Shown: in pieces, positions 15 to 4,596 of the stretch
Position numbering within the stretch: position 1 is the stretch's first letter
Layout of the letters: the number at the start of each line of letters is the position of its first letter
Program-made: the position numbers and the translations under genes
Notes under the pieces: model-generated
The model's input: the letters and a program-made list of their open reading frames with translations, nothing else
What the model was told of the DNA's origin: nothing
The model's database searches: none
IMG/VR virus record: IMGVR_UViG_2695420426_000010
Strand: one strand, 5' to 3'
DNA from: a virus
Lineage: Duplodnaviria > Heunggongvirae > Uroviricota > Caudoviricetes
Length of the DNA: 4,596 bases

Positions 15-3000
15 ATGGGTAAAGGCAGCAGTAAGGGGCATACCCCGCGCGAAGCGAAGGACAACCTGAAGTCCACGCAGCTGCTGAGTGTGATCGATGC
101 CATCAGTGAAGGGCCGGTTGAAGGTCCGGTGGATGGATTAAAAAGCGTGCTGCTGAACAGTACGCCGGTGCTGGACAATGAGGGGAATACCAACATCTCC
201 GGCGTCACGGTGGTGTTCCGGGCAGGTGAGCAGGAGCAGTCACCGCCGGAGGGATTTGAATCCTCCGGCTCCGAGACGGTGCTGGGTACGGAAGTGAAAT
301 ATGACACGCCGATCACCCGGACCATCACGTCGGCAAACATCGACCGTCTGCGCTTTACCTTCGGTGTACAGGCACTGGTGGAAACCACCTCAAAGGGAGA
401 CAGGAATCCGTCTGAAGTTCGCCTGCTGGTTCAGATACAGCGTAACGGTGGCTGGGTGACGGAAAAAGACATCACCATTAAGGGCAAAACCACCTCGCAG
501 TATCTGGCCTCGGTGGTGGTGGATAACCTGCCGCCGCGCCCGTTTAATATCCGGATGCGCAGAATGACGCCGGACAGCACCACAGACCAGCTGCAGAACA
601 AAACGCTCTGGTCGTCATACACCGAAATCATCGATGTGAAACAGTGCTACCCGAACACGGCACTGGTCGGCGTACAGGTGGATTCGGAGCAGTTCGGCAG
701 CCAGCAGGTGAGCCGTAATTATCATCTTCGCGGGCGCATTCTGCAGGTGCCGTCGAACTATAATCCGCAGACGCGGCAATACAGCGGTATCTGGGACGGA
801 ACGTTAAAACCGGCATACAGCAACAACATGGCCTGGTGTCTGTGGGATATGCTGACCCATCCGCGCTATGGCATGGGGAAACGTCTTGGTGCGGCAGATG
901 TGGATAAATGGGCGCTGTATGTCATCGGCCAGTACTGTGACCAGTCGGTGCCGGACGGCTTTGGCAGCACGGAGCCGCGCATCACCTGTAATGCCTGGCT
1001 GACCACACAGCGCAAGGCGTGGGATGTGCTCAGTGATTTCTGCTCGGCGATGCGCTGTATGCCGGTATGGAACGGGCAGACGCTGACGTTCGTGCAGGAC
1101 CGACCGTCGGATAAGGTGTGGACCTATAACCGCAGTAATGTGGTGATGCCGGATGATGGCGCGCCGTTCCGCTACAGCTTCAGCGCCCTGAAAGACCGCC
1201 ATAATGCCGTTGAGGTGAACTGGATTGACCCGGATAACGGCTGGGAGACGGCGACAGAGCTTGTGGAGGATACGCAGGCCATTGCCCGTTACGGTCGTAA
1301 CGTCACGAAGATGGATGCTTTTGGCTGTACCAGCCGGGGGCAGGCACACCGCGCCGGGCTGTGGCTGATTAAAACAGAAGGGCCGGTTGAAGGTCCGGTG
1401 GATGGATTAAAAAGCGTGCTGCTGAACAGTACGCCGGTGCTGGACAATGAGGGGAATACCAACATCTCCGGCGTCACGGTGGTGTTCCGGGCAGGTGAGC
1501 AGGAGCAGTCACCGCCGGAGGGGTTTGAATCCTCCGGCTCCGAGACGGTGCTGGGTACGGAAGTGAAATATGACACGCCGATCACCCGGACCATCACGTC
1601 GGCAAACATCGACCGTCTGCGCTTTACCTTCGGTGTACAGGCACTGGTGGAAACCACCTCAAAGGGAGACAGGAATCCGTCGGAAGTCCGCCTGCTGGTT
1701 CAGATACAGCGTAACGGTGGCTGGGTGACGGAAAAAGACATCACCATTAAGGGCAAAACCACCTCGCAGTATCTGGTCTCGGTGGTGGTGGATAACCTGC
1801 CTCCGCGCCCGTTCAGTATCCGGATGCGCAGGATGACACCGGACAGCACCACAGACCAGCTGCAGAACAAAACGCTCTGGTCGTCATACACCGAAATCAT
1901 CGATGTGAAACAGTGCTACCCGAACACTGCACTGGTCGGCGTACAGGTGGACTCGGAGCAGTTCGGCAGCCAGCAGGTGAGTCGTAATTATCATCTTCGC
2001 GGGCGCATTCTGCAGGTGCCGTCGAACTATAACCCGCAGACGCGACAATACAGCGGTATCTGGGACGGAACGTTAAAACCAGCATACAGCAACAACATGG
2101 CCTGGTGTCTGTGGGATATGCTGACCCACCCGCGCTACGGCATGGGGAAACGTCTTGGTGCGGCGGATGTGGACAAATGGGCGCTGTATGTCATCGGCCA
2201 GTACTGCGACCAGTCAGTGCCGGACGGCTTTGGCGGCACGGAGCCGCGCATCACCTGTAATGCGTACCTGACCACACAGCGCAAGGCGTGGGATGTGCTC
2301 AGTGATTTCTGCTCGGCGATGCGCTGTATGCCGGTATGGAACGGGCAGACGCTGACGTTCGTGCAGGACCGACAGTCGGATAAGGTGTGGGCCTATAACC
2401 GCAGTAATGTGGTGATGCCGGATGATGGCGCGCCGTTCCGCTACAGTTTCAGCGCCCTGAAAGACCGCCATAATGCCGTTGAGGTGAACTGGATTGACCC
2501 GGATAACGGCTGGGAGACGGCGACAGAGCTTGTGGAGGATACGCAGGCCATTGTCCGTTACGGTCGTAACGTCACGAAGATGGATGCCTTTGGCTGTACC
2601 AGCCGGGGGCAGGCACACCGCGCCGGGCTGTGGCTGATTAAAACAGAACTGCTGGAAACGCAGACCGTGGACTTCAGCGTGGGCGCAGAAGGGCTTCGCC
2701 ATGTGCCGGGCGATGTCATTGAAATCTGTGATGATGACTATGCGGGTATCAGCATCGGCGGGCGCGTGCTGGCGGTAAACAGCCAGACCCGGACGCTGAC
2801 GCTCGACCGTGAAATCACGCTGCCATCCTCCGGTACCATGCTGATAAGCCTGGTTGACGGAAGTGGCAATCCGGTCAGCGTGGAGGTTCAGTCCGTCACC
2901 GACGGCGTGAAGGTGAAAGTGAGCCGTGTTCCTGACGGCGTTGCTGAATACAGCGTGTGGGGGCTGAAGCTGCCGACGTTGCGCCAGCGCCTGTTCCGCT

Positions 3001-4596
3001 GTGTGAGTATCCGTGAGAACGATGACGGCACGTATGCCATCACTGCCGTGCAGCATGTACCGGAAAAAGAAGCCATCGTGGATAACGGGGCGCACTTTGA
3101 CGGCGACCAGAGCGGCACGGTGAATGGTGTCACGCCGCCAGCGGTGCAGCACCTGACTGCCGAAGTCACCGCAGACAGCGGGGAATATCAGGTGCTGGCG
3201 CGCTGGGACACGCCGAAGGTGGTGAAGGGGGTGAGCTTTATGCTTCGCCTGACCGTGGCAGCGGATGACGGCAGTGAGCGGCTGGTCAGCACGGCCCGGA
3301 CGACGGAAACCACATACCGCTTCACGCAACTGGCGCTGGGACGGTACACGCTGACAGTCCGGGCGGTAAATGCCTGGGGACAGCAGGGCGATCCGGCGTC
3401 GGTATCGTTCAGGATTGCCGCACCGGTAGCACCGTCGCGGATTGAGCTGACGCCGGGCTATTTTCAGATAACTGCCACGCCGCATCTTGCGGTTTATGAT
3501 CCGACGGTACAGTTTGAGTTCTGGTTCTCGGAAACGCGGATTACCGATATCAGGCAGGTTGAAACCACAGCCCGCTACCTTGGCGCGGGGCTGTACTGGA
3601 TAGCCGCCAGTATCAATATCAAACCGGGCCATGATTATTACTTTTATATCCGCAGTGTGAACACCGTTGGCAAATCGGCATTCGTGGAGGCCGTCGGTCG
3701 GGCGAGCGATGATGCGGAAGGTTACCTGGATTTTTTCAAAGGCAAGATAACCGAATCCCATCTCGGTAAAGAGCTGCTGGAAAAAGTTGATCTGACGGAG
3801 GATAACGCCAGCAGACTGGATGAGTTTTCGAAAGAGTGGAAGGACGCTAACGATAAATGGAATGCGATGTGGGGCGTCAAAATTGAGCAGACCAAAGACG
3901 GCAAACATTATGTCGCGGGTATTGGCCTCAGCATGGAGGACACGGAGGAAGGCAAGCTGAGCCAGTTTCTGGTTGCCGCCAATCGTATCGCGTTTATTGA
4001 CCCGGCAAACGGGAATGAAACGCCGATGTTTGTGGCGCAGGGCAACCAGATATTCATGAACGACGTGTTCCTGAAGCGCCTGACAGCCCCCGCCATTACC
4101 AGCGGTGGCAGTCCTCCGGTATTTTCCCTGACATCAGACGGAAAGCTGACCGCTAAAAATGCGGATATCAGTGGTAGTGTGAATGCGAACTCAGGAACGC
4201 TCAACAATGTCACGATTAACCAGAACTGTACGATTAAGGGCATGCTGGAGGCGACCCAGGTCAGAGGGGATTTCGTTAAAGCTGTATCAAAAGCCTTCCC
4301 GAAAAAAGTCGGTACGTGGGGTAACACGGAAACACCAGACGGTACGGTTACAGTCACCATCAGCGATGATCATAACTTTGACCGCCAGATTATTATTCCG
4401 CCCATTATTTTTAACGGTATAGCGTATGACGATCCGGGGAGCGGAAATAACCCGGGAGGCACGCGATACACGGGTTATGGTTTTGAAGTTCGCAAAAACG
4501 GCGTATTAATCGCATCCAGAGAAACTAAAGGTGCCATTCCCGGTAGTTACAGTGCAGTTATTGATATGCCTAGTGGTGGTGGTAGCGTCACTCTGG
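15..4596 (+). CDS. J: Lambda-like tail tip / host specificity protein J (central tail fibre), 3'-partial, containing an internal in-frame tandem duplication of residues 33-455
   Basis: Hand translation of the frame starting at ATG 15 gives [168 protein letters not shown]..., which I recognise from memory as near-identical to the N-terminus of phage lambda gpJ. Downstream segments ([62 protein letters not shown]..., ...[124 protein letters not shown]...[15 protein letters not shown]) also match lambda J in the same order. I found no in-frame stop anywhere from 15 to 4596 by hand translation, and a TGA at 9..11 closes the frame just upstream, so ATG 15 is the first start. GGAG at 3..6 sits 8 nt upstream of the ATG. 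The gene runs off the 3' end of the window, which is why the ORF track does not list it. Confidence 0.93.
111..1379 (+). repeat. Direct tandem repeat copy 1 (1269 bp, J codons 33-455)
   Basis: Sequence from 111 (gggccggttgaaggtccggtggatggattaaaaagcgtgctgctgaacag...) to 1379 (...ggctgtggctgattaaaacagaa) recurs at 1380..2648 with a period of exactly 1269 bp (3 x 423), so the J frame is preserved. The duplicated antisense ORFs in the track (431..631 vs 1700..1900; 628..816 vs 1897..2085) show the same 1269 offset. Confidence 0.95.
1380..2648 (+). repeat. Direct tandem repeat copy 2 (1269 bp, second copy of J codons 33-455)
   Basis: About 97-98% identical to copy 1 by my hand comparison (about 30 substitutions, no indels noticed). 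It ends at ...ctgattaaaacagaa (2646..2648 = gaa) and is followed by ctgctggaaacgcagaccgtg (LLETQTV), the normal continuation of J. Confidence 0.95.
3132..3698 (+). other. Two tandem fibronectin type III-like (Ig-like beta-sandwich) domains within J
   Basis: Two consecutive segments of about 95 aa with FN3-like character: [98 protein letters not shown] and [91 protein letters not shown]. Each has a conserved Trp near its N-terminal strand, a Tyr-containing strand, and a tyrosine corner-like motif (TYRF / YYFYIRSVN). FN3 domains are known in lambda J. Boundaries are approximate. Confidence 0.5.
4204..4596 (+). other. Divergent C-terminal receptor-binding (host-range) module of J, 3'-partial
   Basis: Up to ...[15 protein letters not shown] the protein tracks lambda J closely. 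From about 4204 it reads [131 protein letters not shown], only distantly similar to my recollection of the lambda C-terminus. Composition becomes visibly more AT-rich with rarer codons (ata, aga, cct, agt), e.g. attattattccgcccattatttttaacggtatagcg. The start coordinate is approximate. Confidence 0.55.

Follow-up and report, generated by a model that had tools for sequence, protein, structure and literature searches.

Two described systems bear on the locus treated here, one a protein and the other an assembly error. In the tail tip protein J of phage lambda (gpJ), residues 33-455 span most of the HDII-insertion domain (FNIII-A, 72-215), HDII, HDIII and part of HDIV, in which strand beta24 follows at 477-482 and an inserted sandwich at 483-569 (PMC10721106; PMC11101478). 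The assembly error is known from vertebrate genomes, where diverged alleles that have been placed in tandem are called "heterotype false duplication" (Vertebrate Genomes Project usage; Ko et al., 2022, PMC9516828). Here, we describe a stretch of 4,596 nucleotides from a member of the Caudoviricetes (IMG/VR record IMGVR_UViG_2695420426_000010; "the window" denotes this whole stretch), in which a 423-codon block of a lambda-type J gene is written twice, head-to-tail and in frame. Judging from the alleles and haplotypes of J in other records, the window is very probably a chimeric contig that strings together two J alleles of one sample, i.e., an assembly artefact and not a real gene; we put the probability of this reading at about 0.88.

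The duplicated block in J

The window consists almost entirely of one open reading frame (ORF), which starts with the ATG at position 15, such that 14 bp precede the start codon, and runs through 1527 codons without a stop to base 4595; the 3' end of the window thus falls within J. The sequence contains no N or ambiguous base (non-ACGT letters = 0). The translation matches the Pfam families FNIII-A_GpJ, Phage-tail_3, Ig_J, Ig_J_second, Phage_Tail_Tip and Ig_GpJ_C, all far over the cut-offs, and the first two are found in two stretches each because of the repeat. Its matches among solved structures include lambda gpJ (8iyk, chain 8iyk_J, and 9e7m, both at E=0) and 9wca ("A8 gpJ 713"), which scores slightly above lambda gpJ 713. 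By both its domain series and its homology to solved gpJ, the ORF encodes a tail tip protein J (TipJ).

When the window was compared with itself at an offset of 1269, positions 108-1379 matched positions 1377-2648 over 1272 bases with 30 mismatches and 0 indels (97.64% identity), which is far beyond chance. The repeat unit of 1269 bp corresponds to 423 codons (J residues 33-455), and its boundary is ambiguous by 3 bp owing to a GAA microhomology. The elements needed for what follows are (all on the plus strand):

15..4596, +, lambda-type tail tip protein J (TipJ) ORF, partial at the 3' end (translation without stop, Pfam, PDB)
111..1379, +, copy 1 of the 1269-bp unit, J codons 33-455 (self-comparison)
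1380..2648, +, copy 2 of the 1269-bp unit, unlike copy 1 at 30 sites (self-comparison)
1377..1379, +, junction microhomology GAA, 3 bp (same triplet at 108-110 and 2646-2648)

At the novel join, AAAACAGAA is followed directly by GGGCCGGTT (acagaa, then gggccg), and the join-spanning sequence of the window is ATTAAAACAGAAGGGCCGGTTG; the normal joins read CATCAGTGAAGGGCCGG from upstream into the unit and AAAACAGAACTGCTGG from the unit into downstream sequence. An in-frame 1269-bp tandem duplication within J had been proposed in a first-pass annotation, and the self-comparison bears this out: the frame is open throughout, and the copies at 111-1379 and 1380-2648 as well as the junction had been placed correctly, given the GAA ambiguity. 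That the 423-codon block is present twice is likewise true, but the 30 sites at which the copies differ (97.6% identity) had been overlooked. These sites lie in 29 codons; 22 are synonymous and seven change the amino acid. The length of the complete product had been estimated as about 1555 aa and is rather about 1560 aa, considering that the homologous proteins P0008 and P0085 run 33 residues beyond the motif ...GGGSVTL (P and L numbers are our handles for proteins and loci).

Allele states and haplotype phase

The origin of the 30 differences can be read from other J genes. In a panel of about 90 J alleles, of which the first 53 distinct ones were used for polymorphism counts, both states were found at 28 of the 30 differing sites, while only 17.6% of the block positions are polymorphic at all. 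Copy 1 differs at only 10 positions from the allele of a Shigella sonnei draft (L006, shared by several IMG/VR contigs), as compared with 30 from copy 2, and the nearest allele to copy 2 is 24 differences off. As the two states coexist in the allele panel at 28 of the 30 sites, the copies are two alleles that existed beforehand, and not diverged duplicates; the low share of non-synonymous changes then simply reflects a history of functional alleles. A hint at the source lineage is given by a single base: both copies carry an A at the corresponding positions 178 and 1447 (Asn55, ...VLDNEGN...), where the first 53 alleles have G (43) or C (10). An exact 34-mer search for A178 returned seven IMG/VR contigs only (L095-L101), and the base marks the lineage from which the window derives.

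Every allele was then scored at the 30 discriminating sites, 25 of which lie in 254-998 and five in 1105-1319. Two natural haplotypes account for the states of the window:

S* haplotype: copy-1 state at 254-998 and copy-2 state at 1105-1319; L006, L032, L033 and L035 (30/30 each) and L029 (29/30)
T* haplotype: copy-2 state at 254-998 and copy-1 state at 1105-1319; L100 and NCTC9082

S* was found in the Shigella sonnei draft and in four IMG/VR contigs, one of which (L029) has the copy-1 state at 24 of the first 25 sites. T* was found in the finished long-read genome of E. coli NCTC9082 and in the IMG/VR contig L100, both with a J of normal length. Neither the written haplotype of copy 1 nor that of copy 2 is carried by any of the approximately 90 records. 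Each copy is therefore chimeric, and the two are chimeric in opposite directions. Laid out along the window, the allele-specific segments are:

111..998, +, S*-type segment of copy 1 (25/25 discriminating sites at 254-998 of the S. sonnei type)
999..1104, +, 106-bp stretch identical in both copies (recurs at 2268-2373), haplotype switch interval of both
1105..1379, +, T*-type segment of copy 1 (five sites at 1105-1319 as in NCTC9082 and L100)
1380..2267, +, T*-type segment of copy 2 (L100: 0 mismatches over 1380-2373; NCTC9082: 99.9%, a single 1-bp indel)
2374..2644, +, S*-type segment of copy 2 (no mismatch to the S. sonnei-type allele over unit coordinates 999-1375)
2645..4084, +, T*-type downstream part of J (one mismatch to NCTC9082 over 2649-4084; 2589-3743 identical to L095)

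The natural linkage of these segments is seen in NCTC9082 and L100, where a segment of the 1105-1379 type comes after the sequence of 1380-2373 and then leads straight into the sequence from 2649 onward. L100 has copy-1 states at all five sites of 1105-1319 and shows two mismatches over the next 1.4 kb of window downstream. If the pieces of the window are re-phased in this order (1380-2319, 1051-1379, 2649 onward), the resulting T* gene has four differences over 2.8 kb from the normal-length J of NCTC9082, and seven positions differ from L100. Conversely, all S*-type records diverge from the window downstream at 1376, with mismatches at 1376, 1388, 1403, 1415 and onward. The J gene of NCTC9082 (L102, 3905-7319; NZ_LR134080.1) is annotated as "frameshifted" in RefSeq owing to a 1-bp indel at position 486 of normal J, one of the four differences just named, which could either stem from an error in the long-read consensus or mark a true pseudogene.

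S* and T* do not differ from each other over long stretches, namely 111-253 (at least 143 bp), 999-1104 (106 bp) and 1320-1375 (about 56 bp), and every haplotype switch of the window sits in one of them, twice in 999-1104 and once in 1320-1375. Moreover, the path through the window takes each allele-specific segment exactly once, as happens when an assembly or scaffold is misled by repeats. A genuine duplication should leave each copy as one contiguous parental sequence with new mutations only; judging from the haplotypes, neither copy is of this kind. Re-phasing by nearest-neighbor distance alone lowered the sum of differences modestly, from 34 to 28; the argument became decisive only when the full haplotype patterns and the loci L095, L100 and L102 were added.

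The closest relative found, L095, is identical to the window over 2589-3743. Each of its 30 sites shows one of the two states, that of copy 1 or that of copy 2, but the phase is a third one (T* at 254-419, S* at 508-1319), and the 1269-bp duplication is lacking. This scaffold contains four joints made of a single N, three of which are flanked by 97-98% identical tandem duplications, and one joint inside J leads from normal-J coordinate 2474 via the N to coordinate 1236 of an S-type allele. From L095 it therefore follows that one and the same allele pair is seen in differing phases across assemblies, with scaffold joints alongside.

Occurrence of the junction and of oversize J proteins

The junction was searched for in several collections. 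A 31-mer over the join was absent from 185,579 GTDB species-representative genomes and from IMG/VR, and a 21-mer over the join gave one chance match only in Joint Genome Institute (JGI) metagenomes (L001, without homology to the window). No INPHARED phage covers the join, and a search of 5426 complete E. coli genomes gave no contiguous match to it. Taken as a whole, each half of the window reaches approximately 98% identity at most to any complete E. coli genome. An inherited duplication should recur in relatives; the junction is absent from them, including L095.

Among the complete E. coli genomes, 29 records seemingly cover the junction query. The four that were inspected, one for each hit group (H1, H2, H11, H12), were rejected as instances of the junction: they are internal J deletions in defective prophages, with the halves in opposite order. 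In these loci (L002-L005, from E. coli WB61, CFSAN061772, K_EC180 and E2), deletions bring the region of codons 33-66 near that of codons 422-455, and the J gene lies in a degraded prophage (e.g., a Qin-like region with tfaQ and pinQ) and is annotated as partial or as a pseudogene.

J homologs of about 1550 aa had been suggested as a further check. Long J proteins do exist, but none of the 120 best-scoring proteins from a collection of 5.8 billion shows the duplication of the window. Nine of these 120 matches are oversize (1295-1882 aa), and all nine lie on draft contigs or scaffolds no longer than 1.09 Mb; many of the normal-length J proteins among the same matches come from Mb-scale chromosomes. 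In four of the nine (L006/P0003, L009/P0061, L010/P0067 and L011/P0068), the duplication junction coincides exactly with a single N, and identity between the copies is 97-99.6%. Together with the nearest relative, the single-N joints in tail genes, flanked by tandem duplications of 97-99.6% identity, are:

L006: 12982
L009: 4185
L010: 4185
L011: 2694, 4092
L095: 8833, 9992, 13607

The proteins P0003, P0061, P0067 and P0068 (1408-1720 aa, annotated as "host specificity protein J") are scaffolding artefacts. One and the same allele is present in L009 and L010, but their joints lie at a distance of 6 bp from each other, and this speaks against an inherited structure. The excess of in-frame cases among oversize J proteins is a matter of ascertainment, because only in-frame cases yield long ORFs.

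The remaining drafts have joints of other kinds. L092 (KN849217.1, GCA_000878525.1, "Bacillus thuringiensis" Sbt003) is a 13.8-kb scaffold of lambda DNA, which in a Bacillus assembly looks like contamination; it contains eleven N runs, ten of them of 20 N with perfect duplications of about 165-184 bp on either side, and a 750-bp J block that is present four times, yielding a "J" of 1882 aa (P0001). L093 (RWZF01000087.1, GCA_003979635.1) likewise consists of lambda DNA, and its J product (P0041) resembles the lambda-type J of L092. It has four N-free tandem duplications within 11 kb (1224, 1054, about 790 and 520 bp), two of which are out of frame, and an overlap of 1-3 nt was measured at three of the joins, suggesting another kind of assembly or library artefact. 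Several N-free diverged duplications lie within one J gene in L094, and one N-free duplication is present in L008. As in the window, the N-free joints of these drafts show 0-3 nt of microhomology (1-3 bp in L093 and L008).

Length variation of another type is seen in P0059 (1301 aa, on a 5.35-Mb contig), where a central near-repeat, VAKKSGEQS.AIA.VDRKVD...SEIRQTVSRSTEENSRQIAQ.RQYVDDK, is present two times, suggesting that genuine variation in the length of J affects the central fiber region and not the hub.

Origin of the join

The following course of events would explain the window. In the sample, two or more closely related J genes of the lambda type would have been present, most probably those of co-resident lambdoid prophages in a genome similar to Shigella sonnei or E. 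coli. Short-read data cannot phase variants over the long stretches in which S* and T* are identical, and the assembler or scaffolder would have used each allele-specific segment once, lining the segments up one after another instead of side by side. The path would have led from S* (1 to about 1050) to T* (about 1050 to 1379), then by a jump to T* (111 to about 1050), on to S* (about 1050 to 1375), and finally into T* downstream, an outcome that would imitate an in-frame tandem duplication of 423 codons. We infer that the join was made by software or in a chimeric library molecule, and not in a cell. The authors of one widely used, high-throughput pipeline describe its SSPACE and GapFiller steps as greedy and able to create false joins (PMC5320598), and, to judge by accession style, this pipeline presumably made some of the draft records. 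The first-pass annotation had left the choice between a real, elongated or defective tail tip and a misassembly: as biology, the former is unsupported, and the latter is favored by the alleles, the reciprocal chimerism, the uniqueness of the junction and the scaffold joints elsewhere.

Several observations weigh against an assembly artefact. The join itself contains no N or ambiguous base, and PMC5320598 was consulted for an established assembler step able to merge contigs over 3 bp of overlap, but none was identified there. A microhomology of 3 bp is also left by real illegitimate recombination or template switching; as an argument for a genuine duplication it is weak, since the artefactual N-free joins of L093 and L008 show 1-3 bp as well. 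The reading frame is kept over the join, though this happens in one of three cases by chance. J genes are highly mosaic, so odd phases could in principle be real recombinants, and the A178 common to both copies shows only that the alleles are related, nothing more. The breakpoints adjoin the common polymorphic sites 107, 1376 and 1379; by our estimate this has a probability of about 0.2 by chance, and it was not used as evidence.

Other explanations differ in where they place the event. The contig could be an artefact of a mixed sample (a metagenome or a contaminated culture), with each of the two alleles stemming from a different strain or phage, or a chimeric library molecule could have been assembled faithfully; S* is known from Shigella sonnei-type records and T* from E. 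coli NCTC9082, and an N-free join fits a read-supported chimera. We regard this as unlikely, given that E. coli genomes carry a median of three and up to 14 J-like loci, which makes co-residence the simpler assumption, and that L095 has both allele types in one scaffold. An old in-place tandem duplication, the copies of which later mutated to 97.6% identity, would agree with copies that differ mostly at synonymous sites. Such divergence after duplication was rejected and is practically precluded by the standing polymorphism at 28 of the 30 sites and by the closeness of copy 1 to foreign alleles, and S* and T* account for all 30 states.

A real duplication would require that illegitimate recombination or template switching at GAA joined position 1379 of one J to position 111 of a co-resident J, giving rise to a J of about 1560 aa with a doubled hub, probably a defective tip in a decaying prophage. 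The clean N-free join with its 3-bp microhomology and the intact frame over 1527 codons are what such an event would produce, and rearranged J genes do occur in defective prophages of finished E. coli genomes, though those seen are internal deletions. A single unequal exchange, however, predicts a contiguous parental haplotype for each copy, whereas both copies switch within the same 106 bp and copy 2 switches again at 1320-1375, such that three extra homologous exchanges would be needed. The junction is found nowhere else, not even in L095, the internally duplicated J proteins among the 120 listed matches all lie on draft sequences (contigs or scaffolds) not exceeding 1.09 Mb, and the breakpoints fall within hub domains and not between them (Pfam; PMC10721106). 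Taken together, this makes a real duplication of this kind very unlikely, and a chimeric contig built from two J genes by far the most probable source of the window.

Structural meaning and further features of the locus

The first-pass annotation had pointed out that the doubling hits the tail tip hub. This is sound, as residues 33-455 lie within hub domains (PMC10721106), though the point is probably moot. Phage-tail_3 covers residues 330-496 of normal J, and the right breakpoint at residue 455 cuts this domain. If the duplication were true, the doubled hub would most likely be assembly-defective, and the locus would represent either a tolerated tail tip of about 1560 aa or the mark of a newly inactivated prophage. 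As biology, little would be left if the contig is chimeric: the locus most likely represents the ordinary, normal-length J genes of two lambdoid prophages, and the product of about 1560 aa should not be used for annotation, counts of new architectures, or host-range or structural inference. The same artefact is already behind public oversize "host specificity protein J" entries (1295-1882 aa), and comparing haplotype phase with natural alleles can flag such cases without reads.

Beyond the repeat, the 3' part of the window belongs to a different mosaic block:

4085..4596, +, C-terminal fiber and receptor-binding part of J (dense mismatches to NCTC9082 and L100; type as in P0008 and P0085)

This block shares the motif EFKIFQKGNQGAGNITDC with P0008 and P0085, unlike the receptor-binding domain of lambda. 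At homologous loci (L006, L008 and L102), the gene order is L-K-I-J-lom. Antisense to J, the minus strand contains an ORF of 564 aa at 2214-3908 and smaller ones at 804-1349 and 3908-4360. No Pfam match was obtained for these minus-strand ORFs (up to 564 aa), and they were rejected as genes, probably being spurious antisense ORFs of a GC-rich coding region.

Comparison with known systems

With lambda gpJ (PDB 8IYK, 8IYL and 8XCG), the J of the window shares the full Pfam series and matches at E=0, and it has approximately 95% identity to lambda-type J over the hub region. It differs only in the written order of its segments, the re-phased pieces giving normal-length J genes, and in its C-terminal receptor-binding block, which is of the P0008/P0085 type and not that of lambda. 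L095 is a counterpart at the level of the scaffold, having the same alleles as the window in one scaffold, with an explicit N at its joints. The single-N joints of the drafts (L006, L009, L010, L011 and L095) resemble the window in the gene affected, the level of divergence (97-99.6% identity), the tandem layout and the in-frame ORFs; here, too, the explicit N sets them apart, whereas the joint of the window is seamless like those of L008, L093 and L094.

Compared with the heterotype false duplications of vertebrate assemblies, the window differs in that paralogous prophage J genes of a haploid bacterium are involved, and in that the duplication lies within a single ORF and in frame. Copies of the typical case are separated by an N gap, as they are in L006, L009, L010, L011 and L095; the window has no such gap, which again counts against an assembly origin. 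In other respects the likeness is close: two diverged versions of a locus stand in series, their allele-specific variants stem from distinct earlier alleles, gene content or length is inflated, and other assemblies of close relatives (L095 and the finished NCTC9082), like the collections searched for the junction, do not show the structure.

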